A stretch of DNA of 64,000 nucleotides from an uncultured Solirubrobacterales bacterium (GCA_963836415.1 CAWIJE010000004.1:227545-291544), one strand, 5' to 3'; positions 16,322-36,301 are shown, counted from the stretch's first letter. Made by a program: numbers and translations. Notes: generated from the sequence alone by a model not told the origin.

Positions 16322-19103
16322 CTAGCGTTTAGGGGGGGATGGCGGCACGAGCGTCGCGATGATCGTGCCGCTGCCGCCTTCCCCGCCTGGGACGCCGGCC
16401 TGAATAGAGACGTCGGCCTTGATCTTGTGCAGCGCCTTGAGTTTGGCCAGGCCCTTGGTCGAGAGCCTGCCGCTGACCGGGACTGCCTTGCCCGGCAGCA
16501 CCGTGACCGTCGTCGACCCGAGTCCGAGCTTCGCCTTCCTTTTCCTCTTCGGGACCAGGGCGCTCACGGCGACCGCGGCCGTGCATGGAGAGCGGCTCTC
16601 CGCCGGACATCCGATCGTCGAGGATTTGATCGTGAAGGTTCCGTTCCTCGCCACCTTCACCCTGCCGCCACGACCAAGCGCAAGGGATGCCCGCAGCCGG
16701 GCCGCCGGAAGCTGCAGATTCTGCACGGGTGTCGGCGCCGGGCAGTCGAGCCTGATGTCGAGGTTGGTCACCGGCGGCGGAATCGTCTGCACCTCGGTTT
16801 CAGTGAAGGCCTGCCCCGAGTTGCCCGGTGCGTGACAGCCATCCTTGGCGGCCTTCACCTTGTAGAAACCGGCGACCACGTCCCAGCCAAAGTGGCCGTC
16901 GGCTTCGCTGAGGTCGGGGTTCCTGCGGTTCATCGGCGACATCACGGCCGAGCCATCGGCGACCTGGGAAAACGGGCCGTTGAAGCTGTCTGACTGGAGC
17001 AGTGTCACCGTCGCTCCCGCAAGCGGAGCGCCGTCGACCGTGTGGACGAGCCCGCTCGGGTCGATGTAGATCGGGAAGGTGATTTCTTCGGGGCCGCCGC
17101 CCGGACCGCCGGGGCCTTCTTCTTCTTCTTCGTTTTCTTCTTCTTCTTCTTCGCGTTCTTCTTCTTCTTCTTCTTCTTCTTCGTCTTCTTCTTCGTTCTT
17201 CTTCTTCGTCTTCTTCTTCTTCTTCTTCTTCTTCTTCTTCGTCTTCTTCTTCTTCTTCTTCCGCTTCTTCTTCTTCCTGTTCTTTCTCTTCTTTTTCTTC
17301 TTCTTCTTTGCTCGCCGGGTGGCGGTCGATGATCGTCACCCGGGCGGCGCCGTGGTTCGGGAACAGCGGGTCGATGTGAAATTTGAAGATCCCGTTTTCA
17401 GGGTCATCGGGGCTCGGTTCGACCGGCTGGTCGGGCGCCACACGGAGGTCCAGGCCATCGGTGAATTCGACCTTCGCTTCGACTTCGTGATCGATCCCGG
17501 TTTCGTATTCGAGGACGAACGGTTCCTGCCAGTGCACCACCGGCACGCCTTCGGCCGACCTGCCACGCACCCCGGACCCGCTGAAGCCGACGCTCGGTGG
17601 TGGCAGCTCGGGAAGGGGGAGGACCACGTCCTGCCCGGTCTTCTCGACTTCGGGCCGGACCCGGGCGATCGTGGTCCGCGTGTGCGAGAGGGCTTTCGAT
17701 GAGGCGGGCGGGAAAGCGGTCACGCGGTATTTGCCAGAGATCGGGACCTGGAGTTTGTAGAAGCCGTTGGAGTCCGTGGTCGTCGATCGACACGGGGTGC
17801 CGCTGCGCTTGCAGACCTGGACCGACGCACCCGCGAGGGCATGGGCGGGCGCCGCCTCGTCCTCGTAGACGTGGCCGCTGATCGCGCCGGCGACGCTGCT
17901 CTCGGCCGAGTCCGTTTCACCTCCGGGGGCGGTGGCGGTGACGGTCACCTTCAGCGACTTGCCGGCATCGGCGGCGCTCGCCGTGTAGCTGGTCCCGGTG
18001 GCGCCGGCGATCGACTGACAGGCACCCTCGGGGCCACAGCGCGACCACTGGTAGGTGAACCCGCCGCTGCTCACTTCCCAGGCGCCGGGACTGGCCGTGA
18101 ACACCTCGCCGGCGCGCGGGCTTCCGGCGCCGGCCGAGAGGGTCGGTGGGGTGACGTTGATCGGTACCAGGGCCGGCGTACAACCGTCGGGGAGCCGAGT
18201 CGGGCTGCGCTCGCCGACGGGCCAGGTGGTCGCGTCGTAGAAGCAGAGGTACTCGACCTCGGAGAGGGGTGTCGTCCAACCGTTCGGCAGCGGCCGGTCG
18301 AGGCTGATTCCCGAGTTGTTCGAGCCCGACGAGCCGTCATAGTCGACGGTGATGCTGGCCGGGCCGACGTTGGCCGGGTCACGCCAGATCAGCAGGCCGG
18401 CGTTCGTGCTCGAGGCGTTGATCGCGAGCCACGATTCGTCCCAGTCTTTGCTGATGCAGACGTTGCAGATCCCTTCCGCCGGCGCCAGTTTCGTGCCGGT
18501 GGCGTCGGGGTGGATCTCCTGGTTGTAGGTGCCGTAGGAGAGGCGCGGCACGTAGGAGCGCATGCCCTGCACGATGTATGGCTCCTGGGTCGGCGCGAAC
18601 GACCAGCGGCGGACGATCCGAGCCGTGTTGGCGGAGGCGCCTTCGTCGAAGAAGGTGTAGCGGGTGCTGACCGGGATCGGGGGGTCGTCGCCCGAGCACG
18701 AAGGGGCCACCGACGTGATCTCCAGGGTGCGGGTGCTGCGCGCCTCCCATGACCCCCTGCTGCAGGCCACCACCGGGCCGGGCCCCTGCCCGTCGGCATT
18801 GCCGTAGGACTGCCCCCAGAACTCGGTCGCATTGACGCAGGTGCCGTTGTTCGCCGCCAGGTTGGGCCTGCTCGAGAACTCTTCGCTCGCCAGGACCCTC
18901 CATTTGACCGATTCGACGCACTCGACATCAGCGCTCGAATCACCGAAGTTCCATTCCAGCTTCGGGGTCGCCACCGTGTCACCGCCCTCGGTGATCGTGA
19001 TCGCCGCCGACGCCGAAGCGGCGCCGAGAGCGAGGACGGCGGCCACCGTAAGAGGCAGCAACAACCATGGACGATTTCTCGAACGTACTCCCCAATAAGC
19101 CAT
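16322..19103 (-). pseudogene. large secreted surface protein with YQW/PKD-like and carboxypeptidase-regulatory-like domains plus a poly-Glu linker; reading frame broken inside the GAA tract
   Basis: ATG at 19103 with signal peptide MAYWGVRSRNRPWLLLPLTVAAVLALGAASASA. The domains include ...FTYQWSRCGPEGAC... and DSNGFYKLQVPISGKYRV. A run of about 45 Glu follows, then the listed 844-aa ORF turns into poly-Arg junk. A plausible C-terminal domain continues in another frame as ORF 16322..17008. A single C interrupting the GAA repeat near 17194 accounts for the shift. Confidence 0.6.
17115..17312. repeat. (TTC)n/(GAA)n trinucleotide tract of about 65 units with sparse G/C interruptions
   Basis: The repeat is directly visible as ttcttcttc...gtc...cgc. 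It encodes poly-Glu on the minus strand. The poly-Phe and poly-Ser plus-strand ORFs 17042..17332 and 17079..17702 are artefacts of it. Confidence 0.9.
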
Positions 19104-19220
19104 TGTTTTCGACGCTATCACGACCCCCAAGGTCAAGATTCCCCTTCCTGTGGTGCCGGGGTCGACCGTTCGTCGGGATCGGCTAAAGCGGCTCGTCCCG
19201 GCGTCGATAATGGTCAGGTC

Positions 19221-20815
19221 GTGCGCGCCCGCCTCGCCCTCCTCGCAGTCACCCTCTCGGTCCTCGCCGCGGCGACCCCGGCCGCGGCCTCGGTCGAAGT
19301 GCCCTTCACGCCGCGCTTCTCGGCCAACGCGCACGGCGACGTCGCGATCGCCGCCAACACGCTGATGACCTGCCCCGACGGCGGCGGGGTCGAAACGGCC
19401 TGCCTGGAAGCGCGCGGGGGCGTCTCGGCGCCGTCACTCAATAACAACGGCTACAAAATGGGGACCGTCGACGTCGACTCCGACGCGACCACCTTCGACT
19501 CCTCGCAGGCGACCCTGAGCCTGCCGCCGGGGGCGAGCGTGCTCTTCGCCGGCCTCTACTACGGCGCCCGCACCAGCGCCGGCGAAGAAGGTGCGGCGGC
19601 GGCGGACCCCGCCGCCCGCGGCACCGTCCTGCTCCAGGCCCCCGGCGCCGCCAGCTACAGCTCGCTGGCGGCCGAAGTCGACGACAGCACCGCGATCAAA
19701 GGCTCCTACGTCGGCTTCGTCGACGTCACCCCGATCGTCGCCGCGGCCGGCGCCGGCGACTACCGCGTCGCCGACGTCCAGGCCGGCACCGGCAAAGACC
19801 GCTACGCGGGCTGGTCGCTGCTCGTCGCCTACGGCGATCCGGCGGCGCCACCCGCAGCCTGCGCGTCTACGACGGCCTGGCGGCGATCTCGCAGGGCGAG
19901 GAACCGCTGCAGATCGGGATCGCCGGGCTCGAGACGCCGAGCGAGGGCGAGGTCTCGGCCCGGGTCGGGCTGGTCGACTACGAGGGCGATCGGGGCTCAA
20001 CCGGGGACCGGCTGTCGCTCGCCGGCAAACCACTGTTCGACGCGGCCAACCCCGAAAAAAACATCTTCAACAGCTCGATCTCCGTCGGCGGCGTCGCCGC
20101 GAGCTCGAAGCTCCCCGACTACGTCAACCAGCTCGGCTTCAACGCCGACCTGATCAGCGCCGACGGCTTCCTCGCCAACGGGGCGACCTCGGCGACGCTG
20201 GAAGAGTCGACCTCGAACGAGCAGTACCTGACCGAGGCGGTCAGCGTCGCGATAGAGCTCGACCCCGAGGTGCTCGAACCGCCTGTCGTGCCACCGCCAC
20301 CGCCACCGCCACCACCCGCGTCGCCGGCGCCGACCGAGCCGGCGCCGCAGGAAAAGCCCAAGAAGGGCGACGGGGACAAGGCCGGCGACAAGGGCGGCGG
20401 CGACGAGGCGAAGATGGCGGTCGAGGTCGAAGCCGGCCCGACGGTCGCGCGCCCGACCGATGTCGTCGTCGTCCGCGTCACGGTCGAATCGAGTGGCAAT
20501 GCCACGCTCAAGGGCGTCAAGGCCTGCAACAGCCTCGAGCCCGGGCTCGAGCGGCTGACGGCGCCGGGCGCGACGGGCAAGGAGGCCACCACCTGCTGGC
20601 AGCTGGCGAAGCTGGCACCGGGCGGGACGCACACCTTCGTCACCACGGCCCGGGTCAAGGGCTCGGCCCACGGCTCGCTGCAGAGCAGGACGATCGTCCG
20701 TGCCGCCAACGCCAAGGCGCGTCGGGCCGTGACCCGGATCCGGGTCTCGCCGCTGCCGGACCTGCCCTGCGCCCGCGCGGCCTCGGCGGCGGCGGTCGCC
20801 CACGCCTCCTGCTGA
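19221..20815 (+). pseudogene. secreted protein with poly-Pro linker and C-terminal domain; frameshifted near 19860
   Basis: Signal peptide MRARLALLAVTLSVLAAATPAAAS, then a plausible domain through GWSLLVAYGDPAAPP at about 19860. The ORF then degenerates, while the +1 frame reads SLRVYDGLAAISQGEEPLQIG...PPVVPPPPPPPPPASPAP...VVVVRVTVESSGNATLKG... to the stop at 20815 (ORF 20270..20815). Confidence 0.6.
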
Positions 20816-20837
20816 GCGCCGGGCATATGCTGGCCGG

Positions 20838-21863
20838 GTGGCCGAGGCAGAGCAGAAGACCGTTCTCGTCAGCGGCGGCACCGGGTTTCTCGGCAGCTGG
20901 TGCGTGGTTGAGCTGCTGCGCGCGGGCTACGCGGTCCGCACCACCGTCCGCGACCTCGCCCGCGAGCCCGAGGTGCGGGCGGCGATCGGCGCCGAGGTCG
21001 AGGTCGGCGATCGGCTCGAGGTGCTCCCCGCCGACCTGCTCAGCGACGAGGGTTGGGACGCGGCGGCCAGGGGCTGCTCCCACATCCTGCACGTCGCCTC
21101 CCCCTTTCCCCGCGCCCAGCCGAAGGACCCCGACGAGCTGATCGTGCCGGCCCGCGAAGGCACCCTGCGGGTGCTGCGCGCGGGCCTCGACGCCGGCGTC
21201 GAGCGGGTCGTCGTCACCTCCTCGGTGGCGGCGATCGGCGGCGGCGCCGACCCCGCCGCCGGCCCGCTCGACGAGGGCGCCTGGACCGACCTCGACCACG
21301 CCGGCCTGACCCCCTACGCGCGCTCGAAGACGATCGCCGAGCAGGCCGCCTGGCAGCTGGTCGAGGAGCGGGGCGAGCGCGAGCGGCTCGCCGTGATCAA
21401 CCCGGGCGCGATCCTCGGCCCCGTCCTGACGGCGGGGCGCTCCTCCTCGCTGCAGCTGGTCGAACGCCTGCTCGGCGGGATGCCCGCGATTCCCCGGATC
21501 GGCTTCAGCCTGGTCGACGTGCGCGACGTCGCCACCCTTCAGCTGAGCGCGATGACGGCCTCGGAGGCGGGCGGCGAGCGCTTCATCGCGGTCTCCGAGT
21601 TCCTCTGGATGTCGGAAGTCGCCGCAGCCCTGCGCGAGCGGCTCGGCGAGGCAGGCAAGAAGATCCCGACCCGCACGATGCCCGACCTCCTGGTCCGCCT
21701 CGCCGGCGTCTTCGACCCGGGCATCCGCTCGGTCGTCGGCCAGCTCGGCCGCCATCAGGAGTACTCCAACGCGAAGGCGCGCGAGCGCCTCGGCTGGGCA
21801 CCGCGTCCGCCGCTCGACTCGGCCACCGACGCGGCCAAGAGCCTCATCTCCGATCCGGCCTGA
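20838..21863 (+). CDS. NAD-dependent epimerase/dehydratase family (SDR; aldehyde/flavonol reductase-like)
   Basis: VLVSGGTGFLGSW Rossmann motif, YARSK catalytic dyad region. Confidence 0.8.
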   Translation: MAEAEQKTVLVSGGTGFLGSWCVVELLRAGYAVRTTVRDLAREPEVRAAIGAEVEVGDRLEVLPADLLSDEGWDAAARGCSHILHVASPFPRAQPKDPDELIVPAREGTLRVLRAGLDAGVERVVVTSSVAAIGGGADPAAGPLDEGAWTDLDHAGLTPYARSKTIAEQAAWQLVEERGERERLAVINPGAILGPVLTAGRSSSLQLVERLLGGMPAIPRIGFSLVDVRDVATLQLSAMTASEAGGERFIAVSEFLWMSEVAAALRERLGEAGKKIPTRTMPDLLVRLAGVFDPGIRSVVGQLGRHQEYSNAKARERLGWAPRPPLDSATDAAKSLISDPA

Positions 21864-21881
21864 GCGCTCCGAGGAGCCCGC

Positions 21882-22439
21882 TCAGAGGCCGGCAGGATGG
21901 CGCGCCGCGAAGTTGCGCGGGTCGGCCATCTCCGGGTGCCAGCGGGGGCCGGAGACGCCGGAAGGGGCGTCGCGGGTGTCGTAGCGAAGGCCGGCGACGA
22001 CCATGTACACGTGGTGCCAGTTGGCGTAGACCGTGATCCAGCGCCCGGTTCCGGCATCGCCCCACTGTTCGAGCTGACCCGAGACCATCGTCGTGCTCAA
22101 CAGGTCTCCGCCATGCAGGGCGTAGCCGACCGCCCCCGAGCAGTCATAGCCGAAGCTGGTCCAGCCCAGGTGGCCGCCGCCCCAGACATAGGGGCGGCCG
22201 TCGATCCGGTTCGCCGCCGCGATCACGTCCTTGACCGACTGCGGCGCGTAGGGCGGCGCCAGCGCCCGGCCGTCGACGATCTGTGCCCCGCAGGTCGAGC
22301 TCGACCGTTCCACCCCTGCTTCGGCCATCTGGCATTCGTAGCGCCACGGGATCGGCCGGGCGGAAGCTGCGGTCGTGGAGGCCGCGAGAACTGCCGCCGC
22401 CATCGCCAAAACCGCCCCGAGTCTCCCTCTGCCGCGCAT
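21882..22439 (-). CDS. NlpC/P60 family secreted peptidase
   Basis: Signal peptide MRGRGRLGAVLAMAAAVLAAS. YVWGGG...GYDCSG (Cys) and WHHVYMVV (His) are the papain-like C40 motifs. Confidence 0.75.
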   Translation of the reverse strand: MRGRGRLGAVLAMAAAVLAASTTAASARPIPWRYECQMAEAGVERSSSTCGAQIVDGRALAPPYAPQSVKDVIAAANRIDGRPYVWGGGHLGWTSFGYDCSGAVGYALHGGDLLSTTMVSGQLEQWGDAGTGRWITVYANWHHVYMVVAGLRYDTRDAPSGVSGPRWHPEMADPRNFAARHPAGL

Positions 22440-22513
22440 CTCGGCCCAAAGCGTAGACGCAGCGCGGCTAGGCGCCCCCGGCATAGGATCGGGCACCGCC
22501 GAAAGGAGCCTGG

Positions 22514-23623
22514 ATGAAGATGCGTGCCGCGGTGCTGGAGGAGTTCGGAAAGCCGCTCGAGCTGCGGGAGGTCGACCTGGCCGAGCCGCGCTCGGGTGAG
22601 GTCCTGGTCCGGCTCCACGCCTGCGGCGTCTGCCACACGGACCTCTACACCGCCTCCGGCGCCGACCCCTCCGGCTACGCGCCGACCGTGCTCGGCCACG
22701 AGGGCGCCGGCGTGGTCGAGTCCGTCGGCCCCGACGTCGCCGACTTGGCGCCCGGCGATCACGTCGTCACCCTCTTCTCGCCGCAGTGCCGCGAGTGCGT
22801 CCACTGCCTCGACCCGCGGACCAATCTCTGCCTGGCGATCCGCGAGCAGCAGAACAAGGGCCTCCTTCCCGACGGCACGACCAGGATCTCGAGCGACGGT
22901 GAGGGCATCCGCAGCTTCATGGGCTGCTCGACCTTCGCCGAGTACACGGTGATGCCGGAGATCGCCCTCGCCCGGGTCAACCCCGAGGCGCCGTTCGAGG
23001 CTGCCTGCCTGTTCGCCTGCGGGCTCTCGACCGGCCTCGGCGCCGCGATCAACACCGCGACGGTGGCGCCGGGCAGCACCTGCGTCGTCTTCGGTGCCGG
23101 CATGGTCGGCCTCGGCGCGGTCGCCGGCTGCCGGCTGCAGGGCGCCGAGCGGATCGTCTGCGTCGACCTCTCGGCCGAGCGGCTCGAGCTCGCTCGCGGC
23201 CAGGGGGCGACCGAGGTGATGCAGGGCGGGCCGGACGCGGTCGAGCAGCTGCTCGAGATGACCGGCGGCTTCGGCGCCGACTACACCTTCGAGGCGACGG
23301 GCAACGTCGCCGTCATGCGCCAGGCGGTGGAATCGGCGCGCATGGGCTGGGGACTCTGCACAGTCGCCGGCGTCGCCGGCCGCGGCGAGACGCTCGACGT
23401 CATCCCGCGATTCCTGATCACCGGCCGGCGCATCGCCGGCTCATCCTTCGGCGGCGTCAAGGGCCGCGACCAGGTGCCGCAACTGGTCGAGCGCTATCTC
23501 GCCGGCGAGATCGACGTCGAGCCGTTCCTCTCGCACCGGATCGGCCTCGAGCAGGTCAACCACGGCTTCGAGCTGATGGAGGCCCAGGACGGGATCCGCA
23601 GCGTGATCACCCTGGCCGCCTGA
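22514..23623 (+). CDS. class III Zn-dependent alcohol dehydrogenase; likely S-(hydroxymethyl)mycothiol/formaldehyde dehydrogenase
   Basis: AAVLEEFGKPLELREVDLAEP...LHACGVCHTDL...GHEGAGVVESVG...VFGAGMVGL is the standard class III ADH profile. Confidence 0.8.
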   Translation: MKMRAAVLEEFGKPLELREVDLAEPRSGEVLVRLHACGVCHTDLYTASGADPSGYAPTVLGHEGAGVVESVGPDVADLAPGDHVVTLFSPQCRECVHCLDPRTNLCLAIREQQNKGLLPDGTTRISSDGEGIRSFMGCSTFAEYTVMPEIALARVNPEAPFEAACLFACGLSTGLGAAINTATVAPGSTCVVFGAGMVGLGAVAGCRLQGAERIVCVDLSAERLELARGQGATEVMQGGPDAVEQLLEMTGGFGADYTFEATGNVAVMRQAVESARMGWGLCTVAGVAGRGETLDVIPRFLITGRRIAGSSFGGVKGRDQVPQLVERYLAGEIDVEPFLSHRIGLEQVNHGFELMEAQDGIRSVITLAA

Positions 23624-23632
23624 CCCGGCGGC

Positions 23633-23927
23633 TCAGGCGCCCTTCTCGAGCAGGCCCGCGACCGCGCCCGCGATCCTCACCCCGCGGGGGGTCAGCGCGT
23701 ACTCGGTGTGCGGGGGCCGCCCGGCGACCAGCCGCCGCTCGACGATCCCGGCCTGCTCGAGCTGCTCGAGCCGGTCCGAGAGCGTCGTCGGCGAGACGCC
23801 CGGCAGCGACTGGCGGAACTCGTTGAAGCGGGCGGCGCCGCTGGCGCAGGCGTAGATCGTCGCCAGCGTCCAGCGGCGCTCGAGCAGGCTCGCCGCCGCC
23901 CTCAGGTCGGGCGGGACGGGAGCGCAG

Positions 23928-23947
<20 letters not shown>
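23633..23947 (-). CDS. HxlR-family winged-helix transcriptional regulator
   Basis: LLERRWTLATIYACASGAARFNEFRQSLPGVSPTTLSDRLEQLEQAGIVERR. Confidence 0.75.
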
Positions 23948-26243
<2,296 letters not shown>

Positions 26244-26652: not shown

Positions 26653-28550
26653 GCCGCTCCGGGCGCCGGCGCGATCGTCGAGCGCGCGCCCGCCTCCCGC
26701 ACCGCCGCCGAGAGGGTCTCGATGTCGTAGGCGCCCTCGTGGCGCCGCTCGTTGATGAAGAAGGTCGGTGTCCCGGTGACGCCGCTCGAGTCGGCGGAGT
26801 CGACGTCTTCCTCGATCCGCGGCGCGTGCTCGTGCCTGCGCATCTCGTCGTCGAAGCGCTCGAGGTCGAGCTCGAGCTGTTTGGCGTACCTGCGCAGGTC
26901 GCGGAAGCGGAGGTCGCCCTGATGGTCGAGGAGGAGGTCGTGCATCTCCCAGAAGGCACCCTGCGCGGCCGCCGCCTCGGCCGCCTCGGAAGCGGTGTCG
27001 GCGTTGGGGTGCACGTCGGAGAGCGGCAGGTGGCGCCAGACGTAGCGCACGTCGCCGAAGTCGCCGAGCAGCTCACGGATCACCGGCTCCGCCCGGCCGC
27101 AGTAGGGGCACTCGAAGTCGCCGTACTCGACCACCGTCACCGGCGCCTCGGCCGGCCCGCGCAGGTGGTCGCGCTGCGGGTCGACCGGCACCGCCAGGTC
27201 GGTCAGCCCCTCGGCTCCGGCCAGCATCGCCCTGATCCGGGCCCGGTTCGGCAGCAGCGAGGTCGCGCGCAGGACCAGCCAGGTCAGGGCCGAGGCGCAG
27301 ATGGCGGCGCTGAGCACGCCGAGCTTCGCCTCCTCGAGCTGCTCGCCGTGGAAGGCCAGGGCGGCGATCAGCAGCGAGACGGTGAAGCCGATGCCGGCGA
27401 TCGCCCCTCCCCCGGCCGTCGCCGCCCAGCCGACCGGCGGCCGCAGCCGGCCACCGCTGAGCTTGGTCGCCAGCCAGGCGGCGCCGGTTACGCCGACCGG
27501 CTTGCCGAGGACGTAGCCGAAGAGGATGCCGAGCGTGATCGGCGAGGTGTAGGCGCGGGCGAGGAAGTCGCCGTCGATCGCGATGCCGATGTTGGCGAGG
27601 GCGAAGAGCGGGACGATCACGTAGCTGGTCCACGGGTGGTAGAGCTGCAGCAGCCGGGCGTTCGGAGAGACCGCGGCGCGCAGCCCGACCCGGGCAGAGC
27701 GCTCGAGCTGCGGCGTCGGCTGCTCGCGGAAGTCGCGAAAGAGGTTGGTGGCGCGCTCGAGCTCGCTGCGCCCCGCCGGGTTGGCGCCGACGACGAGGCC
27801 GGTGGCGAGGCCGAGGATCACCGGGTCGAGCCCGGATTCGAAGAGCGCGACCCAGGCGACGATCGCCAGCAACAGGTAGACGACCCCCTCACGCACCGCG
27901 GCGATGCGGAGCCCCAACATGACGAGGAAGACACCGACCGCGATCAGCAGCGGCTCGAGCTCGACATGGCCGCTGTAGGCGACCGCGATAACGAGCAGGG
28001 CGACGACGTCGTCGACGACGATCGTGGTCAGCATGAAGCCGCGCAGCCGGTCGGGGAAGGCCGGGCCGACAAGCGCCAGCATGCCGAGCGCGAAGGCGGT
28101 GTCGGTCGACATCGCGACTCCCCAGCCGTGCGCCGAGGGGTCGCCGGCGTTGATCGCGAGGAAGATCGCGACCGGGACGAGCATGCCGCCGAGACCGGCC
28201 AGCACCGGCAGCGCCAGCCGGCGCCGCTCGCGCAGCTCGCCGACGTCGAACTCGCGCCGCACCTCGAGGCCGACGACGAAGAAGAAGAATGTCATCAGGC
28301 CGCTGTTGACCCAGTCCCGCAGGCTCTGTGAGAGGCCCGAGCCGCCGACGTCGATCGAGAGCCGGGTGTGCCAGACGCTCTCGTAGGAGGAGAGGTCGAC
28401 GTTGGCCCAGACCAGAGCCGCGGCGGCTGCGGCGAGCAGGATGCTGGCGCTGCCGGTCTCGGTGGTGAGGAAGTCGCGCAGCGGCGCCTGCAGGCTGCGC
28501 GCCCAGGCGGTACGGCCGCTGAAGGCAGATCTGAATCGGAAGAGGCTCAC
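26649..28550 (-). CDS. nhaA: Na+/H+ antiporter NhaA fused to C-terminal DsbA-like thioredoxin domain
   Basis: The NhaA TM core spans residues 1-430. The C-terminal ~200 aa carry VEYGDFECPYCGRAEPV (CPYC active site) and the DsbA fold. Confidence 0.85.
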   Translation of the reverse strand: MSLFRFRSAFSGRTAWARSLQAPLRDFLTTETGSASILLAAAAAALVWANVDLSSYESVWHTRLSIDVGGSGLSQSLRDWVNSGLMTFFFFVVGLEVRREFDVGELRERRRLALPVLAGLGGMLVPVAIFLAINAGDPSAHGWGVAMSTDTAFALGMLALVGPAFPDRLRGFMLTTIVVDDVVALLVIAVAYSGHVELEPLLIAVGVFLVMLGLRIAAVREGVVYLLLAIVAWVALFESGLDPVILGLATGLVVGANPAGRSELERATNLFRDFREQPTPQLERSARVGLRAAVSPNARLLQLYHPWTSYVIVPLFALANIGIAIDGDFLARAYTSPITLGILFGYVLGKPVGVTGAAWLATKLSGGRLRPPVGWAATAGGGAIAGIGFTVSLLIAALAFHGEQLEEAKLGVLSAAICASALTWLVLRATSLLPNRARIRAMLAGAEGLTDLAVPVDPQRDHLRGPAEAPVTVVEYGDFECPYCGRAEPVIRELLGDFGDVRYVWRHLPLSDVHPNADTASEAAEAAAAQGAFWEMHDLLLDHQGDLRFRDLRRYAKQLELDLERFDDEMRRHEHAPRIEEDVDSADSSGVTGTPTFFINERRHEGAYDIETLSAAVREAGARSTIAPAPGAA

Positions 28551-28565
28551 TCGCTCAGGAGCATT

Positions 28566-29483
28566 TCAACCGGGGCGTCCCGCCGCCCGCCAGTAGGCGC
28601 GGATACGGCGACGGAAGGCGGCGGGCTTCTCGGCGTAGACGCGGCGGCCGAGGTCGAGCGCGGCGCCGAGCAGCTGCTCCTGGCGCGCCCCGATCGCCGC
28701 CTCGAAAGCCGCCGTGTCGGAAGCGGCGAGGCCGCGCCGGTCGAGGTCCTCGCGCAGGACCTCGAGGTCCTGGTGCTCCCCCAGCAGGTCGCCGAGCTCG
28801 TGCAGGCGCCCGGCTGCCTCGGCGAGCGGCTCGGGCCAGAGCGAGTCGAGGATGCGGAGTTGGTGCCAGAGGTCCTTGGCCCGCTTGCGCCACTCGTGGA
28901 CCCGGACGGCATCGGAGCGGCGGCTCGAGCGCCGCATCGCCCGACGGCCGTCGCGGTAGGCGCGTCCGAGCCCTGCCTCGACCAGCGCCCAGGAGTCGTC
29001 GTGCAGCGGCCAACCGTCGATCCGCCGGCGCCCCGCCGCGACCGCGTCGGCGATCGCGGCGATCCCCTCCCCGTCGCGTCCTCGGGCGATCAGCCCGGCG
29101 GCCGCCTCGTCGCGCTCGAGGCCGAGGCCCCACTCTTCGAGGCCCTGCTCACTCGCCTCGACCTCGCGGGCGGCGAGTAGGGCCTCGAGCGCCTCGCTCT
29201 TGACCTGCGCGTCGCGGGTCGCCGAGAGCGCCCGGCCGGCGTCGCGGTAGCGCCGGCTCTCTCGCCTGTATGCCTTCTCGCCGAGCTCCGCGCGGCCGAG
29301 GCGCAGGACGCTGCGCAGCTTCTTCAGGTCCTTGCGCGCCTCGTGCACCGCGTCCTCGACCGACTCGCCGCGCGCCGCCCGGCGCATTTCCCGGACCGCC
29401 CGCTCGGCCCTGCCGGCAGCGATCCTCCGCAACCCGGTGGCGGCGGGCTCATCCTGCTTCAGTCGGTAGGCGCGGCCTCTCAT
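28566..29483 (-). CDS. CHAD domain protein
   Basis: Repeated helical His motifs, VHEARKDLKKLRSVLRL and VHEWRKRAKDLWHQLRIL, are typical of the conserved histidine alpha-helical domain. Confidence 0.75.
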   Translation of the reverse strand: MRGRAYRLKQDEPAATGLRRIAAGRAERAVREMRRAARGESVEDAVHEARKDLKKLRSVLRLGRAELGEKAYRRESRRYRDAGRALSATRDAQVKSEALEALLAAREVEASEQGLEEWGLGLERDEAAAGLIARGRDGEGIAAIADAVAAGRRRIDGWPLHDDSWALVEAGLGRAYRDGRRAMRRSSRRSDAVRVHEWRKRAKDLWHQLRILDSLWPEPLAEAAGRLHELGDLLGEHQDLEVLREDLDRRGLAASDTAAFEAAIGARQEQLLGAALDLGRRVYAEKPAAFRRRIRAYWRAAGRPG

Positions 29484-29580
29484 CAGGTGAACGACCCCTT
29501 GTCGAATTATTTACTCGATCTTGACGCCACCCGAAGGAGCCGAGGCGACGATTGTCGCTCACCCCCAAGGAGGCTTGCCA

Positions 29581-29819
29581 TGCCGCAGATCCTGATCGTC
29601 ACCGACTCCCCCAACCACATCACCAGAACGGTCGTCTACCGCGAGCGCGTCGACCACAGCGACCTCGAGTCGAACCACTTCTCCGGGCAGCTGGTCGAGC
29701 GGGTCGGCTGGGCGGTCGGCGACGCCGAGGCGCTGGAGCGGCGCAACCGCCTGCGCCGCGGTGACGGCCGCCGCCAGGACCCCGCCCACACCGAGTTCAA
29801 ACGCGTCTCCGCCCACTAG
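29581..29819 (+). CDS. hypothetical small protein
   Basis: A strong RBS (ccaaggagg) precedes the ATG at 29581. MPQILIVTDSPNHITRTVVYRERVDHSDLESNHFSGQLVERVGWAVGD is compositionally protein-like. The longer listed ORF starting at 29343 is probably leader. Confidence 0.45.
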
Positions 29820-29852
29820 GCGCGGCGCCCTCGGGCGGTTAGCCTGGGCGCG

Positions 29853-31345
29853 ATGCCAACGCCGAGCGACCACCCGACCGAACTGCTGATCGACGGCGAG
29901 CTCTGCGCCGGCGCGGGCGCCACGCTCGCGGTCGAGAACCCCTACTCGACCGCGACGATCGTCGAGCTGGCGGCCGCCTCGACGGAACAGGTCGACGCCG
30001 CCGCCGAGGCCGGCCGCCGGGCCTGGCCGGGATGGGCGCGGACGCCGGCGGGCGAGCGCTGCGAGCTCCTGCACGAGGTCGCGCGGCGGCTGCGCGAGGG
30101 CGCCGAGGGCCTGGCGCGGACGATGACCGCCGAGGGCGGCAAGCCTCTGCTCGAGAACCGCGACGAGCTCGAGTGGACCGCTGCCGCGTTCGACTACTAC
30201 GCCGAGATCGGCCGCGATCACGCCGGCCGCGTGATCCCGCCGATCGAGTCGACGCAGGTGGCGATGGTGGTCAAGGACCCACTCGGCGTCGTCGGCTGCA
30301 TCGTCCCCTGGAACTATCCGCTGCTGCTGCTCGCCTGGAAGGTGGCGCCGGCGCTGGCCGCCGGCAACTGCGTCGATCTGCAAGCCCTCCGAGCTGACAC
30401 CGCTCTCGACCCTGATGCTCAGCGACGCCTTCGGGCACCTGCCCGCCGGCGTCGTCAACCTGCTGGCCGGCGCCGGTGAGATCGGCGCCGCGATCGCCGC
30501 CCACCCCGAGGTCGACTGCGTCGCCTTCACCGGCTCGGTGGCCACCGGCAAGCGCGTCGCCGAGGCCTGCCTGCCGCGAATGGCGCGCGTCAACCTCGAG
30601 ATGGGCGGCAAGGACGCCTTCATCGTCTGCGCCGACGTCGCCGCCGAGATCGAGGTCGCGGCCCGCGGCGGCGCCTGGGCGGCGTTCCTCAACGCGGGCC
30701 AGGTCTGCACCTCGGCCGAGCGGTTCTACGTGCTGGACGAGGTCTACGACGCCTACGTCGATGCCTTCGTCGAGCACACCCTCGGCCTCGTCCTCGGCGA
30801 CCCCTTCGAGGTCTCGACCGACATCGGCCCGATGGTCTCCGACCCCCAGCGGGCCAAGGTCGTCGCCCAGCTCGAGGCGGCGAGCGCCGGCTGGCGCCGA
30901 GATCCTCGTCGGCGGCGACTCCGGAGGCCAGGAGCGGGGCCACTTCCTCTCCCCCGCGGTCGTCACCGGCGCCGCGCCCGACTCCGCGCTGCTCACCGAG
31001 GAGACCTTCGGGCCGGTTGCGCCGCTGGTCCGCGTCGGCTCGCTCGACGAGGCGATCGAGCTCGCCAACGGCACCGAGTTCGGGCTCGGCGCCAACGTCT
31101 ACACGGGGGAGCTCGAGAGCGCGGTGCGCTGCATGCGCGAGCTGCGCGCCGGCACGGTCTGGATCAACGACCCGTTGACCGACAACGACGCCGGGCCCTT
31201 CGGAGGCTTCAAGCAGTCCGGCCTCGGGCGCGAGCTCGGCCGCGAGGGACTCGAGGCCTTCCAGGAGACCAAGCACGTCCACATGGAGAGCAAGATCGAG
31301 CGCAAGGAATGGTGGTACCCCTACAGCGAGTACGGCAAGGCTTAG
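29853..31345 (+). pseudogene. NAD(P)-dependent aldehyde dehydrogenase split across three frames by two +1 frameshifts
   Basis: Frame 1 (29853..~30375) covers ...GCIVPWNYPLLLLAWKVAPALAAGNC. Frame 2 (~30385..~30890) covers KPSELTPLSTLMLSDAF...EMGGKDAFIV...GQVCTSAERFYV. Frame 3 (~30895..31345) covers GAEILVGGD...EETFGPVAPLVRV...PFGGFKQSGLGRELG. Together they make a complete ALDH. Confidence 0.8.
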
Positions 31346-31367
31346 GGGCGCCCCGGGCCGGTCCTGC

Positions 31368-32183
31368 TCAGCTCAGCGCGACCGCGGCCTCGGGCGTGAC
31401 GACGCGGAAGGTGAAGCTCTCCTCGAGATAGAGCTCGACCGCCTCGGCGGTCGTGAGCGGTCGTAGCCGATCGAGAGGTCCTCGCCCGACTCGAAGAGGA
31501 AGTCGCCGCCGCGCAGGCTCAGCACCACGGCGCCCTTCACGCCGGGCGCCCAGACCAGCGGGCCGCCGAGGATCTCGCGCAGGTGCTCGAGCAGCGGGTA
31601 GCCGCCGTGCTCGCTGGTCTCGAGCACGCGGGTGTACGGCGTCGGGGCCGAGCGCCAGGCCGTAAGGGCCCCTCGATGCCCGGCCGCGAGCAGCGCCTCG
31701 ACCGCGCTGGCGACGTGACTGCGGGTAGCGCTCGCAGTCCTCGCCGAGCGCGATCGGGTCGTGCGGAGCTCGACTCGACGCGATGCCGGCGATCCCGGCC
31801 GCGCTTCCAGCCGTGGAAGACGGCCGATGTTCTCGGCGATCGGCGAGCTGCTGCGCGGCCTCGTCGAGCGGGTCGAAGTCGACGTCCTCGGCGCCGCGGT
31901 CGACGTCGGCCAGCTCGCCGCGGGCGACCGTGAACGGGGCGCGCAGCTCGACCAGCGGCAGCACCTGGCGCTGCACCGCCTCGACGCCCTCGGCCGGGCG
32001 CGCTCGGCGACCTCGCCGCTTCGGCCGAGGTTGGTCGCCGGAGTGCTGCCAGCCGTGCGGGCCGGAGAAGTCGACGAGCCGGCGGGCGGCCAGCGCCGGC
32101 GTCAGCCGCTCGCGCGCCTCGTCGTCGAGCAGGTCCCAGCCGCGCTCGGTGATCGGGGCGTGCTCGCGCAGCAGGTGGCTCAT
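31368..32183 (-). pseudogene. family 1 encapsulin (Linocin M18-like) shell protein, interrupted by at least four frame changes
   Basis: MSHLLREHAPITERGWDLLDDEARERLTPALAARRLVDFSGPHGW is a canonical encapsulin N-terminus, and ...TAEAVELYLEESFTFRVVTPEAAVALS* a canonical C-terminus. The middle pieces (VASAVEALLAAG, GPYGLALGPDAV, EHGGYPLLEHLREILGGPLVWAPGVKGAVVLSLRGGDFLFESGEDLSIGYD) alternate between two frames around 31700, 31665, 31640 and 31460. Confidence 0.75.
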
Positions 32184-32574
32184 CGGCCCTGTCCCCTGAG
32201 GCTGCCGATGCCGAGCGACTCCGCCGCCGGCGAGCGGCGCGCCGCGCTCCGCCGCGCCCTCGGTGGCCGCCTCCTCGGCGGCCTCGCCGTGCTCGACGAT
32301 GTCGCCGTCCTGGAACAGGATGCCGGCGGCGATCTCGCGCCAGAGCGGCGTCCGCCGCAGCAGGAACTCGAGGTCCATGCAGAAGTGCTTGAACTCCTCG
32401 CCCTGGGCGTCGTGCATGATCGCCCGCGCCTCGCCGTCCTTCTCGACCGCCAGCCGCTGCTCGTACCAGCCGATCGCCTCGGCCTCCTCGGTCAGCGAGG
32501 CGCACAGCCGGGCGAAGGTCCGCGTCTCGTCGGGCAGCTCCTCGGGCGGCTCGTGGTACTGGTCGAATCCCACG
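32181..32574 (-). pseudogene. encapsulated ferritin-like cargo protein (EncFtn/Flp) with C-terminal targeting peptide; one frameshift before the targeting peptide
   Basis: HEPPEELPDETRTFARLCASLTEEAEAIGWYEQRLAVEKDGEARAIMHDAQGEEFKHFCMDLEFLLRR is an EncFtn-like four-helix motif. In the +1 frame the gene ends ...AAESLGIGSLRGQGR*, a family-1 cargo-loading peptide. Its TGA overlaps the shell ATG (ATGA). In the printed frame the ORF instead reads through into the shell gene. Confidence 0.7.
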
Positions 32575-32583
32575 GTCGACAGA

Positions 32584-33492
32584 CTAGCGCCGCCCGAGCT
32601 CGGCGGCGAAGCGATCCGCGGCCCCCTCACCATGGGCGAAGAACAGCGAGGGCTCGGTCAGCTCGACCTCCAGCACCATCGGCCCGGCCTCGGCCGAGGT
32701 GACGACGTCGACCCGCATGTAGGCGAGCGCGCCGAAGCGCGCGCCGATCGCCGCGACGGTCCGATCGGCGAGCGCCCGCTCGGCCGCCCTCGGCGTCCGC
32801 GGCTCGATCGTCTCGGCGGCGAAGAGCTCTTCGGTGGGCCCGGCGCCGGGCTCGAGCAGGGGGCCCTTGCGGATCGCGTGTGAGTAGGAGCCGCCGAAGT
32901 AGAGCAGCGCGGTCTCGCCCTCGGCGTCGACCGCGGAGACATAGGGCTGGACCATCGCCGTGCGGCCACTCGCGTGGATCGTGTGGACCAGCTCGAGCGC
33001 GGCGGAGCGCTGGTCGGGACGGCCCGGCGAATAGCGCGCGGTGTCCCTGGAGCCGGCCGAGACCGAGGGCTTGACCACGATTTCGCCCTGATGCGGCAGG
33101 GACCGTGGCGACGCGCCCGGCGCGACGAAGTCGGTCTCGACCACCGCCAGCCCGCCCGCTCCGAGCTCGCCGAGGTAGCGCTTGTCGGTGTTCCAGCGCA
33201 GGACCTCGACCGGGTTGAGCAAGGTCGGCACGCGCGCGGCCCAGTCGAGGAACTCCTCGCGGCGGTGCTGGTAGTCCCAGGTCGAGCGGATCAGGACGAG
33301 ATCGAAGGCGGCCCAGTCGAGGCCGGGCTCATCCCAGGCGTGCCAGGAGACCTCGACGCCGCGGGCGGCCAGCGCCGCGACCAGCAGCGCGTCGTCGGCG
33401 TCGCCCTCCGGCAGCGCGGCGCAGGTGGCGAAGGCAAGGCGCTGTCGAGGTGGGTCGTCGATGCGCGAAGTATCGCTCGCCCGCCCAGGCAC
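32584..33492 (-). CDS. ATP-grasp domain protein (RimK/glutathione-synthetase-like)
   Basis: A pre-ATP-grasp N-domain (CAALPEGDADDALLVAALAARGVEVSWHAWDEP...LIRSTWDY) and a central ATP-grasp fold (VVKPSVSAGSRDT...GGSYSHA). Confidence 0.6.
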   Translation of the reverse strand: MPGRASDTSRIDDPPRQRLAFATCAALPEGDADDALLVAALAARGVEVSWHAWDEPGLDWAAFDLVLIRSTWDYQHRREEFLDWAARVPTLLNPVEVLRWNTDKRYLGELGAGGLAVVETDFVAPGASPRSLPHQGEIVVKPSVSAGSRDTARYSPGRPDQRSAALELVHTIHASGRTAMVQPYVSAVDAEGETALLYFGGSYSHAIRKGPLLEPGAGPTEELFAAETIEPRTPRAAERALADRTVAAIGARFGALAYMRVDVVTSAEAGPMVLEVELTEPSLFFAHGEGAADRFAAELGRR

Positions 33493-33572
33493 GGCGTCGG
33501 TTTCGGCGCCCTGCTCCGGCCGTGATATCTGCGACAGTCGTTTCGTCGCACCCCATCCCCGAGGAGGAAGTC

Positions 33573-34288
33573 GTGAAGAAGAACATCCGAGGCAAGCTGA
33601 CCTACGCCAACGTGATGGCGACCCTGGGGGTGTTTCTGGCGCTCGGCGGCGGCGCGGCGTGGGCCGCCGGCAGCCTCGGCAAGAACGCCGTGAAGACGAA
33701 GAACATCGCGCCCAAGGCGGTCAAGTCGAAGAACATCGCGCCGAAGGCGGTCAAGAACAAGAACCTGGCGAAGAACGCGGTCAAGGAGGCGAACCTCGCC
33801 AAGAACGCGGTCACCGCCGCCAAGGTCAAAGCCGGCACGCTGACCCGGGCCCAGCCGCCGCCGGCACGATCGCCGGCACCCAGATCGCCGAATTCGGCTC
33901 GACCGTCACCCTCGGCAGCGACACGACGGCACCCCAGGCGCTGGCCGGGACGCCCAGCTTCACCCCCGCCGCCGGCAAGTCCTACCTGCTGCTCGCTGAA
34001 ATCCAGAGCAACGTCAGCGACGTCGACGGCGCTGGCGGCAGCTCCTGTTCCGCCTACGTCAACCTGCTCGTCAACGGCCACTACAGCGACAACAACTACC
34101 TGCACCTGCAGGCGGACAGCTCGAGCACGGACATCTTCGGGTTCGAGCCGTCGGACTCGCTGAGCACGGCGATCGGGCTGGTCGGAGCGGGAGCAGCGGT
34201 CACCATCACCGAGGTCACCGAAGGCGATGCCGATTGCGGCCCCGGCGCCACCGGCCAGCTGCGCGGGACGATCGTCGAACTCGGCTAG
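33573..34288 (+). pseudogene. membrane-anchored protein with Lys-rich KNAVK tandem repeats and C-terminal beta-rich domain; frameshift near 33855
   Basis: RBS gaggagga then GTG. VKKNIRGKLTYANVMATLGVFLALGGGAAWAAG is a TM helix, followed by five repeats, GKNAVKTKNIAP/KAVKSKNIAP/KAVKNKNLA/KNAVKEANLA/KNAVTAAKVKAG. The sequence then continues in the +2 frame as AAAGTIAGTQIAEFGSTVTLGSD...CGPGATGQLRGTIVELG* (ORF 33425..34288). Confidence 0.5.
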
Positions 34289-34296
34289 CGCGAGGC

Positions 34297-35058
34297 TCAG
34301 CCGATCGGGGTGCAGGGCAGGATGTGGATGCCCTGCAGCTCGGCGCCGCCGGCGAAGAGGATCTTGCCTTCGGTGTAGTAGGCGCCGGTCGGGCAGCCGG
34401 CGGCGAGGTAGGTCCGCTTCTTGCCGCGGAAGGTGAACCTGCGCCCGATCGTCAGGCTGGCGCGGGTCACCGATCCGGCGCCACCGGCGATCGACGGGAT
34501 CGTCGTCACCGAGTGGATGCCGTAGCGGCCGCGGTGGATGCGGCTGATCTTGACCGTCGCGACGACCGCGGTCGGCACCGGGACGGCGACGTAGGCGTGG
34601 GCGAAGAGAAGCGTGGTGCCGCCGTGGACGCCGCCGTTGAAGAGGACCAGCGGGCCCTTGGCGCTGAACGGGATCGATTCGGCGAAGGCGACTTCGACCT
34701 CCCCTCTCCGCTGCCGACGATCGCGTCGGGGCAGGCCTTCTTGGCGGCTGCCGTCGCGCGCGCCTCGAGGCTCCCCTCACGGCACGTGGGCAGCCCTTCG
34801 GCATCGAGCCGGATGCTCTTGTCGAAATCGATGTCGAGCGTCGTCACCGCTGGGGGGTGAGTGCCGTCGGTGGTGCCGATTTCGGCGTCGATCCGACCGG
34901 AGACCGGCGCCTGGCCGCGCTTCGGCAGGCGCGAGGGCGAGATGCCCCCGTCGTCCTTGAGGAAGAGGTTCCCGGCGCGGATGACGTGCGGCTTGGCGAA
35001 GGCGCTCGCGGCGAAGATCAGGGCGAATCCGAGGTATCAGGGCGGCGAGCCGGGTCAT
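34297..35058 (-). pseudogene. secreted hypothetical protein; two frameshifts at short homopolymer runs
   Basis: ATG at 35058: MTRLAALI then, after dropping one C in ...acctc..., LGFALIFAASAFAKPHVIRAGNLFLKDDGG...AVTTLDIDFDKSIRLDAEGLPTCREG...AIVGSGEG. After a G4 run near 34690, it continues EVEVAFAESIPFSAKGPLVLFNGGVHGG...GCPTGAYYTEGKILFAGGAELQGIHILPCTPIG*. Confidence 0.5.
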
Positions 35059-35147
35059 CGGCACGATCCTCTCCCCCGGCGGCCCCCGCCGCCTCCCCAA
35101 TGCGGGGACCCGCGCGGCCGCGAATCAGCAAAGCGGGAAGTCGGGCC

Positions 35148-36301
35148 TCAATCGTCGAGGCGCAGCGCGATCTCCAGCTCCGGCGCGACGTCCTTCAGCG
35201 GCCGCCCGTAGAGATCCTCGACCGCGCGCAGTCGGTTCGTCACCGTGCGGCGGTCGACCCCGAGCACGGCCGCGGTCGAGGAGACGTTGCGCTCGGCGGC
35301 GAAGTAGGCGCGCAGGGTCTCCCGTCCCGTCGCGCCGCCGTCCCGCGCGCCTTCGAGCGGCTCCAGGTAGAGCTTGCGCAACGAAGAAATGACCAGGTCG
35401 TCGCGGATAATCGACGCCAGCAGCGCGACGTCGGCGTAGCGGACGACGGCCTCCCCCTGCGCTCGGCGATCGGCAGCGCCGCCTTTGCCTGGCGGTGGCT
35501 GAAGCGCCAGCCCGCGAGGCCCTCGCCGGGCTCGCCGATCGTCGCCACCACCTGATTCGGTGAGATCTCGGCGAGCGCCGCCACCGCCTGCTCGGCGCCG
35601 AGGCGGTTGCGGCCGCCGAGCCAGCAGGCCCAGGTCAGCTCTTCCTCGCGCCGGACCGCGAGCAGGCGCCGGTCGAGTCGCGCCGCCAGCGCCCGCATCA
35701 CCTCCGGTGCCTCGTCGCCCTTGACCATCAGGGCGAGGTGGCGGCCGTCGAGGTCGTAGCCGAGCTCCGAGGAATCGACGAGCTCGCCGGCGAGCAGGCG
35801 CTTGACGCACTCGCGGCGGCGCTCCGCGGCGCTCCGCGGCCGGCTCGTCACCTCGGCCGCGTGCTCGGCACTGACCGCGGCGAGCAGCCGGTCGCCGATC
35901 GTCGCCTGCGCCGCGAGCAGCGGCCGCAGGGCCGAGCTCGGGACCTCGGCCCGCTCGGCCTCTTCGACCAGGAAGTCGCCGAACAGGGTGTTGCCGGCGA
36001 AGTAGCGGCGCAGGACGGTGTCGAGGGGGACGCCGTCGCGGGCGTCGAGACGAGCCTGGGCGATCAGCTCCGCCGGCACCGCCGGGGCCCGGCGCTCGCC
36101 GTCCTCCAGCACTGTGAGCCGGTAGTCGACGGCGGCGGCCAGGGCTACGTGGAGGCCCTCGAGATAAGCGGGGTCGGCGACGTCGTGCGGATCGGAGATC
36201 GCGTAGACGCGGGTCATGACCGCGGCTTGGATCTCGGGCAGACGCTCGCGCAGGCGCCTCGCGAGCGCGGCTCCGGCGTCATCCAAGCCACGCTTGCTCA
36301 C
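35148..36301 (-). pseudogene. PucR-family transcriptional regulator; frameshift at a C5/G5 run near 35457
   Basis: The N-terminal 280 aa (ORF 35240..36301) form a PucR-like ligand domain. The C-terminal HTH_30, TLRAYFAAERNVSSTAAVLGVDRRTVTNRLRAVEDLYGRPL, lies in a different frame (ORF 35148..35810). The junction is at ctccccctg. Confidence 0.6.

Follow-up and report, generated by a model that had tools for sequence, protein, structure and literature searches.

A dense cluster of single-base frame breaks around an EncFtn-encapsulin operon in a Solirubrobacterales contig, very probably left by the assembly

Genes and frame breaks of the interval

The window analysed here is a stretch of 64,000 nucleotides from an uncultured Solirubrobacterales bacterium and, between positions 16322 and 36301, it carries eight genes that need single-base corrections of their frame to be read at full length. 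The features of this interval are the following (surplus bases in square brackets, missing ones as a hyphen).

16322-19103, minus strand: S2, a secreted protein of ~930 aa; one extra base at ~17195 in (GAA)n, GAAGAA[C]GAAGAA
17116-17308: (CTT)64 trinucleotide repeat
19221-20815, plus strand: S1, a secreted DUF3344/DUF11 protein, 531 aa when joined; one base missing at ~19853 in a CCC run, where CCACCC-GCAGC should read CCC CGC
20836-29800: block of intact genes (epimerase, NlpC/P60-like, Zn-ADH, HxlR, Lon, DksA-like, NhaA and CHAD)
29853-31345, plus strand: aldehyde dehydrogenase; one extra base at 30375, GTC[G]ATC, and one at ~30890, GGC[T]GGC
31368-32183, minus strand: family 1 encapsulin shell gene; 12 one-base insertions, no deletion
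32182-32633, minus strand: EncFtn cargo gene; an extra G at ~32222, GGCGGC[G]GAG
33573-34288, plus strand: KNAVK-repeat membrane-anchored protein of ~238 aa; one base missing at ~33855, CAGC-CGCC
34297-35058, minus strand: X, a small secreted protein; one base missing in GGGG at ~34704, and one extra at ~35035, ATA[C]CTC, in the signal peptide
35148-36301, minus strand: PucR-family regulator; one base missing at ~35459 in a G5 run (C5 on the plus strand)

The breaks are seen as switches of frame in the middle of ORFs, with the strand unchanged, both in the GC3 frame plot and in a Viterbi segmentation by codon usage, and were located by frameshift-aware protein-to-DNA alignment against intact homologues. 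The eight genes hold 21 such events, 17 one-base insertions and four one-base deletions, and the encapsulin gene alone, only 0.8 kb long, takes 12 of the 17 insertions. All 21 fall within 31% of the window (chance P ~2e-11) and 15 of them are packed into 1.85 kb, whereas ORFs and coding signal give no frame break at 1-16.3, 20.8-29.8 and 36.3-64 kb. Suspected further breaks at 2.1-2.7, 4.2-4.9, 40.3-41.0 and 41.6 kb turned out to be separate intact genes (cupredoxin, STAS, and ArsR plus VOC) or short ORFs of weak signal. In the block between S1 and the aldehyde dehydrogenase, ORFs coincide with the coding signal, Pfam domains are of full length, and Lon shares 84-89% identity, across residues 1-767, with 80 relatives; Lon, NhaA, the UvrA-like protein, Mfd, the MFS protein and every other ORF outside the interval are intact.

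The individual breaks are each supported by intact homologues. S2 consists of a signal peptide, a CarboxypepD_reg-like domain, a poly-Glu linker and a C-terminal domain; the linker is encoded by (CTT)64, in coding orientation (GAA)n, and it is there that the frame breaks. An intact protein of 919 aa (P0368) matches both fragments, the N-terminal one over residues 35-599 at 57% identity and the C-terminal one over residues 672-916. Joined S1 matches intact homologues of 515-570 aa across 93-100% of its length, and its frameshift-aware alignment to one homologue (P0121) gives a single -1. The Aldedh profile is found by Pfam in three frames (profile positions 7-157, 180-328 and 330-461), and either side of the junctions the aldehyde dehydrogenase is 83-90% identical to its homologue in L066 (tblastn and frameshift-aware alignment). 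For the KNAVK-repeat protein, the homologues in L007 and L034 are too divergent to place the break, and a database search was used instead; it gave intact homologues (P0241 and P0242, 81-82% identity at 100% coverage, and about 270 others), against which the gene shows a single -1. Homologues of X in L034 and L018 align over both of its junctions. Homologues of the PucR regulator in L034 and L014 (407-413 aa) align to it in two frames, with GGDEF_2 in the N-terminal piece and the PucR helix-turn-helix in the other (NF050824 positions 303-397 of 404).

Once corrected, all eight genes match intact homologues from end to end. Homology and codon bias run on in the shifted frame past each break, GC3 staying at ~0.9-1.0 in every shifted fragment, and the frameshift-aware alignments show neither nonsense codons nor larger deletions in any of the eight corrected genes, nor any loss of several codons. 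The broken forms are those of the public record: three called proteins of the window's source, a public contig of 1,457,512 bp (NCBI, ENA), are exactly the broken fragments, P0361 being identical to 16322-17008 of S2, P0159 to 19221-20150 of S1 (310/310 residues, out-of-frame tail included) and P0243 to the C-terminal piece of the KNAVK-repeat protein. No sequence of the same species was found in the collections searched, where the best matches reach 80% for the encapsulin and 89% for Lon.

These results bear out the shifts that an earlier note on this DNA had read from the sequence, namely a disruption in each of two secreted proteins (here S2, +1, and S1, -1), two shifts in the aldehyde dehydrogenase and one each in EncFtn, the KNAVK-repeat protein and the PucR regulator, the last at a C5 run; the two shifts it gave for X, at CC and GGGG, correspond exactly to the +1 and the -1 listed above. 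Its ‘four or more’ shifts in the encapsulin gene become 12 separate one-base insertions, the outermost at 31449 and 32039, and its remark that the long core genes are intact, including Lon and NhaA inside the interval, agrees with the coincidence of ORFs and coding signal.

The same note had called the events homopolymer-type, which suits the four deletions, all in short G/C runs (C3/C4, G4, G5 and a C3G3C3 context), but not the 17 insertions, all 12 of the encapsulin gene included, whose surroundings are for the most part free of repeats (GTC[G]ATC, GGC[T]GGC and AAC[A]TCG, for instance). Overall, about five of the 21 events belong to G/C runs. G/C homopolymers are no denser in the interval than in the rest of the window, at 1.5-2.2 runs of at least five per kb throughout. 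By eye, the listed contexts of the insertions share no sequence or methylation-like motif, and Tandem Repeats Finder and a repeat search, run for long direct or inverted repeats that might cause mis-assembly, returned only the (CTT)64 tract, also seen in the codon listing.

The EncFtn-encapsulin operon

As deposited, neither the EncFtn nor the encapsulin ORF is intact. The raw sequence fuses the cargo and the shell into one ORF of 421 aa (31368-32633), in which Pfam finds both EncFtn-like and Linocin_M18, the Linocin_M18 profile being placed in two frames. The extra G at ~32222, supported by alignment to the EncFtn of L007 and L034, throws the C-terminal targeting peptide of EncFtn, ESLGIGSLRGQGR, out of frame. 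The insertions of the shell gene lie at 32039, 32002, 31992, 31841, 31828, 31803, 31721, 31681, 31671, 31637, 31456 and 31449; they were placed by DNA alignment to four intact relatives, and profile-guided dynamic programming gives exactly 12 skips. It is only after the removal of these 13 extra bases that a full-length Linocin_M18 shell appears beside an EncFtn with its targeting peptide, and the TGA stop of the latter then overlaps the ATG of the shell (ATGA), as in relatives. Both genes are intact, each in one frame, in five relatives.

The corrected shell protein has 267 aa and aligns at 100% coverage with 120 homologues, all of them intact and 265-268 aa long. In columns where conservation across the 120 is 97% or more it does not deviate once, the homologues themselves having a median of one deviation and a maximum of six. 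Its private substitutions are 19 non-synonymous and 11 synonymous, against 12 and 14 in L007, a difference that is not significant and in which some of the changes adjoin indels. The gene carries its 12 extra bases in 813 nt with these conserved residues in place.

Origin of the frame breaks

The frame breaks are very probably consensus errors, rather than part of the organism's DNA, in a segment that a long-read metagenome assembly left under-polished or with poor support; the low local read support and the sequencing platform of the source are both inferred. In the organism itself all eight genes are most likely intact, and with them a normal EncFtn-encapsulin operon for iron storage. In such a segment the consensus would have rested on reads that were too scarce or in conflict, possibly because of a dip in coverage, an uncommon arrangement specific to one strain or the loss of reads to the contig of a sister strain, and this could leave residual single-base insertions, at ~1.5% at the worst point (30.4-32.2 kb), together with scattered deletions at short homopolymers in the flanks. 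A patch of raw reads, a polisher artefact and a mixture of strains are candidates for the error process. What favours an artefact over natural decay is that the indels come without substitutions and are biased towards insertions, that there are no nonsense codons and that codon bias is kept. The class of explanation proposed in the earlier note, an error or an extremely recent change and not long-decayed pseudogenes, is upheld, by the indel-only damage and the lack of nonsense codons as much as by the conserved columns of the corrected encapsulin and the retained GC3; and the most economical cause is the one that it suspected, a segment that was assembled differently from its surroundings or on poor support.

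The closest relatives are largely Nanopore-only metagenome-assembled genomes, assembled with Flye, polished once with Medaka and not polished with short reads (PMC12313526), and bins of low Nanopore coverage are known to require polishing, their gene calls being fragmented by indels (PMC9262707). Residual long-read indels weigh more heavily where coverage is low and short-read polishing is lacking (PMC9262707; proovframe preprint, 10.1101/2021.08.23.457338). An independent comparator is L075 (MFD02159.bin.2.83, CAVRVU010000003.1), a metagenome-assembled Nanopore genome from a relative: at 3.9-8.5 kb of its locus, a stretch of ~4.5 kb, at least 17 frame breaks of a single base fall in three genes unrelated to those here, which are 82% identical to homologues once corrected. 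It came from an all-against-all frameshift scan of 80 loci, from which only multi-site clusters such as this were used; sites with single support were mostly false, arising from stop-to-stop ORF queries and natural gene fusions (CHAD fusions, locus ~13.6-15.2 kb).

If the indels were real, they would mean that in this lineage a very recent burst of pseudogenisation inactivated the EncFtn-encapsulin operon and the genes around it, which we consider improbable. They are, admittedly, part of the deposited sequence itself and did not arise with the window; the genes that they hit have accessory roles (secreted proteins, a regulator, an iron-storage compartment), with housekeeping Lon, NhaA and UvrA intact; and gene order around Lon varies between related species, so that the region is plastic. 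Against this, 12 independent insertions in 813 nt with no conserved residue changed need a ratio of indels to substitutions of ~1:1 or higher. Neutral decay in bacteria is said, after Mira, Ochman and Moran in 2001 and Kuo and Ochman in 2009, to be dominated by substitutions and biased towards deletions, and a bias towards deletions is the opposite of the 17 insertions and four deletions observed. Real decay also sits badly with the missing nonsense codons and larger deletions and with the retained GC3, and no substitutions at conserved sites, raised dN/dS or loss of codon bias speak for relaxed selection. Moreover, once a frameshift had broken the gene, selection gives no reason why eleven more should strike it whilst the adjacent 9 kb stay clean, and a like cluster occurs in different genes of L075, itself a long-read metagenome-assembled genome. 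Taken as real, the 21 indels would have to be an insertion-biased and substitution-free burst over a few kb, for instance through a local event of error-prone repair or synthesis, which had just inactivated the operon and its neighbours in a wild soil actinobacterium, and this we hold to be very improbable indeed. Expression of the broken genes through programmed ribosomal frameshifting or transcriptional slippage has practically no probability. The fragments do keep their coding signal and homology past each shift, as a recoded gene would, but the 21 sites are spread over eight unrelated genes, 12 of them in one gene of 0.8 kb, they have neither a slippery motif in common nor a long homopolymer, of A/T or otherwise, and the same proteins are read in a single frame in five relatives. 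The heterogeneous contexts of the sites effectively refute recoding, and no system is known to decode single extra bases at such density.

A more specific form of the artefact, namely that reads of two strains were merged and both alleles written side by side, is conceivable though rather unlikely. It would account for insertions without mismatches, and many of the insertions can indeed be read as two alternative bases, such as [G][A]TC (Val/Ile), GG[C][T], AT[A][C], CC[C][T] and GA[A][C]. In collapsed assemblies, nearby allelic variants are known to shift read alignments and so to produce INDEL errors and false frameshifts, which are gone after phasing (PMC8445201). The resemblance to two bases carries no weight alone, however, because any one-base insertion can be so read, and random single-base insertions simulated into the corrected encapsulin gene reproduce the observed pattern. 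Both alternative deletions are synonymous in five of the 12 encapsulin events, against 0.39-0.49 under the null (binomial p = 0.23-0.54, Mann-Whitney p = 0.17), whereas sites made up mostly of synonymous SNPs between strains would predict a higher fraction.

Consequences and comparison with known systems

The frame-break cluster is, in all probability, not a genuine biological feature, and its main value is that of a quality warning. Annotation of this contig will show broken or falsely fused genes, such as a 421-aa ‘EncFtn-encapsulin fusion’, an aldehyde dehydrogenase in three pieces and a split PucR regulator, and public protein collections already hold the broken fragments P0159, P0243 and P0361. 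Patches of this sort will enter surveys of pseudogenes, gene fusions and ‘novel’ short proteins in long-read metagenome-assembled genomes. As the errors form dense local blocks and are mostly insertions outside homopolymers, they would be missed by whole-genome quality scores and by homopolymer-aware fixes. Should the indels be real after all, they would point to an unusual localised process that generates insertions, of which L075 would be a second case; the evidence opposes this.

The corrected operon resembles known family 1 encapsulins with EncFtn cargo, with a 267-aa Linocin_M18/HK97-fold shell and, directly upstream, an EncFtn-like protein ending in ESLGIGSLRGQGR, and its layout, ATGA overlap included, is common to the five relatives. 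The 421-aa raw ORF is superficially like the natural fusions of EncFtn to the shell, but it is a product of the extra bases. Genuine pseudogene clusters, as in Mycobacterium leprae and recent host-restricted pathogens, are similar in that several neighbouring genes are frameshifted with the core genes intact; genuine decay, however, also gives substitutions at conserved sites, nonsense codons, larger deletions, a bias towards deletions and loss of codon bias, none of which is seen here.

Collapsed allelic variants (PMC8445201) would explain the locality and the insertion bias, but they were documented in a diploid eukaryote, and here the simulation lends no support beyond chance to the retention of both alleles. 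There is a likeness, too, to the residual indel errors of long reads, where single-base indels also split well-conserved genes and leave predicted proteins shorter than their homologues. The textbook error profile of Nanopore is one of homopolymer deletions, which does not fit pure insertions outside homopolymers without detectable mismatches. Classic errors of this type are, moreover, spread genome-wide, unlike the present ones, of which 17 in 21 are insertions, mostly non-homopolymer, gathered in a few kb with tens of kb clean on either side. A local cluster of the same kind is what the related Nanopore genome L075 has.

Frame changes between 16.3 and 36.3 kb

The G+C of the window is ~72%, and since GC3 is ~0.95 in such a genome, composition directly reveals the true frame. 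Both a three-phase GC plot and a Viterbi segmentation on codon usage (training set: the long intact genes) show the coding signal switching frame, on the same strand, at nine gene positions from 16.3 to 36.3 kb, each time in mid-ORF and with neither stop nor start at the switch. When coding segments are set against their enclosing stop-to-stop ORFs, the signal within 16322-36301 often stops hundreds of bases short of the ORF's stop, or starts without a start codon, whilst outside this interval signal and ORFs agree. The few ambiguous spots outside it are separate intact genes (cupredoxin, TopIB, STAS, Zn-ADH, luciferase-like, ArsR and VOC).

Frame analysis and homology confirm in every case the cluster of frame-disrupted genes reported here by the earlier note. 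There are 21 events in eight genes (17 insertions, 4 deletions), all of them inside the interval (P ~2e-11 under uniformity) and 15 within 30375-32222. Lon and NhaA are intact as claimed, lying in a 9-kb block (20.8-29.8 kb) in which no frame break was found. G/C homopolymer density is equal in all segments of the window, and the label 'homopolymer-type', given earlier to the errors, fits the four deletions and only those.

Disrupted genes besides that of the encapsulin shell (+1, one extra base; -1, one missing base)
16322-19103: S2, a single secreted protein of ~930 aa; extra base within a (GAA)n poly-Glu tract
19221-20815: S1, a secreted DUF3344/DUF11 protein; one -1 in a C run at ~19853
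30375 and ~30890: aldehyde dehydrogenase; two +1; Aldedh (Pfam) profile positions 7-157, 180-328 and 330-461 in three frames
~32222: EncFtn; one extra G, which shifts the targeting peptide ESLGIGSLRGQGR into another frame and joins EncFtn to the shell ORF
33573-34288, + strand: KNAVK-repeat protein; a single -1 at ~33855
34297-35058: secreted protein; -1 in GGGG at ~34704 and +1 (ATA[C]CTC) at ~35035
~35459: PucR regulator; one -1 in a G5 run, based on 407-413-aa homologues in two related loci (L034, L014)

Both fragments of S2 are matched by an intact 919-aa homologue (P0368), the joined S1 is matched over 93-100% of its length by homologues of 515-570 aa, and the joined KNAVK protein is 100% covered by intact homologues at 81-82% identity. 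The aldehyde dehydrogenase of L066, another related locus, is 83-90% identical either side of both junctions, and the C-terminal piece of the PucR regulator matches the C-terminal helix-turn-helix of a PucR-family model. For the secreted protein at 34297-35058, homology places the two changes exactly at the CC and GGGG where they had been noted.

The S2 tract, (CTT)64 on the + strand (17116-17308), encodes ~64 residues, nearly all Glu, that join two domains of the protein; around it (16-19 kb) G+C is lower (0.65) and AT skew strong compared with the remaining window.

The encapsulin locus

The worst-hit gene is that of the encapsulin shell, where the '4 or more' shifts of the earlier note proved an understatement: it carries 12 individual one-base insertions, and not one deletion, in 813 nt, a count on which DNA alignment with four intact relatives and profile-guided alignment agree. 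Minus the extra bases, the predicted product is an ordinary family 1 shell protein of 267 aa, and 120 intact homologues (265-268 aa) align with 100% of it. It departs nowhere from the consensus at columns at least 97% conserved among these homologues, which themselves depart at up to 6 such columns (median 1). Its lineage-private substitutions show no significant non-synonymous enrichment relative to the similarly deep branch of locus L007.

As deposited, 31368-32633 (- strand) reads as a 421-aa ORF with both EncFtn and encapsulin shell Pfam domains, which resembles a natural cargo-shell fusion but owes its existence to 13 extra bases. Once the frame is corrected, ESLGIGSLRGQGR forms the end of EncFtn, whose TGA overlaps the ATG of the shell gene. 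The gene next upstream of EncFtn, also on the - strand, encodes an intact ATP-grasp protein (32587-33492), which matches positions 3-295 of 298 of the D-cycloserine synthetase DcsG model at 257 bits, below the 360-bit cut-off.

Several other features of the window were recorded. The KNAVK protein (~238 aa) combines a membrane anchor at its N-terminus with 30-nt tandem repeats (33674-33813), which encode KNAVK-like decapeptides, and with a C-terminal domain that is conserved; neither Pfam nor NCBIfam has a match for it, and its ~270 homologues of ~239 aa (Solirubrobacterales wherever a source is named) form an uncharacterised family. A 490-aa ORF (38802-40274, +), with no Pfam match, carries five diverged Cys-containing repeats of ~86 nt each (SCPS...C.AVG-like). 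ARAGORN and Rfam alike support tRNA-Met (44713-44786) and tRNA-Leu (47823-47910), whilst the tRNA-Ala(GGC) called by ARAGORN at 52867-52945 (-), which falls within a coding ORF (52435-53409, +), is likely to be a false positive, since Rfam does not report it at gathering score.

Origin of the frame breaks

Three public-collection proteins are identical to broken fragments, out-of-frame tails included: P0159 (19221-20150, 310/310), P0243 (C-terminal piece of the KNAVK protein, 100%) and P0361 (ORF 16322-17008, 100%). The indels therefore belong to the deposited record, where P0159 and P0243 lie on a 1,457,512-bp contig (NCBI, ENA); contigs of such length are typical of long-read MAGs. The breaks are real in the sequence, and very probably absent from the organism.

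Neutral decay in bacteria proceeds mainly by substitution, with a bias towards deletions. Here the opposite is seen: in the shell gene twelve independent indels accompany essentially no substitutions, and insertions outnumber deletions 17:4 overall; after frame correction no nonsense codon or larger deletion is found in any of the eight genes, and GC3 is high in every fragment. Programmed recoding is ruled out because the sites are too many and too varied in context, and because five relatives encode the genes in a single frame. There is a low residual probability that the indels are genuine, the product of a very recent mutational burst biased towards insertion.

The best-supported reading is that the consensus is probably under-polished or poorly supported locally, possibly through a drop in coverage, a rare strain-specific arrangement or diversion of reads to a sister contig. 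In one specific form of this reading, a possible but unsupported one, both alleles of strain polymorphisms would have been written side by side, giving insertion-only errors: many sites look so by eye, but simulated random insertions yield a like picture (p = 0.17-0.54). The neighbourhood of Lon is rearrangement-prone, gene order there (window 21000-38700) varying among related species (L007, L014, L028, L034, L066), which is consistent with an under-supported consensus. L034, L014 and L028 have the EncFtn-encapsulin pair downstream of Lon, and L007 has it inverted; in the window it is set apart from Lon by NhaA, CHAD and the aldehyde dehydrogenase. Flye assembly and a single round of Medaka polishing, with no short reads, produced the related Microflora Danica MAGs (PMC12313526); low-coverage Nanopore bins require further polishing, and indels break up gene calls (PMC9262707).

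The practical value of this result is a warning, as such patches feed false pseudogenes, false fusions and fragment proteins into databases. The Lon of the window is 84-89% identical to that of 80 Solirubrobacterales/Thermoleophilia MAG loci, many on Mb-scale contigs of the Nanopore-only Microflora Danica project, and these loci were scanned for adjacent matches to one protein in different frames. One of them, L075 (MFD02159.bin.2.83, CAVRVU010000003.1), a long-read MAG of the same clade, has a dense block at 3900-8500, with at least 17 single-base frame breaks all within ~4.5 kb: a 0.8-kb gene has at least ten, the adjoining gene has four +1 near its end and a third gene has three, whilst the Lon of L075, 2 kb off, is intact. 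The genes affected (a 720-750-aa protein, glutamate-decarboxylase-like and MBL-fold-like), which after correction yield proteins 82% identical to homologues, have no relation to the encapsulin locus; such dense local blocks of one-base indels are therefore a property of this kind of assembly, not of the genes. Loci from short-read assemblies show isolated sites only, several of them natural gene fusions.
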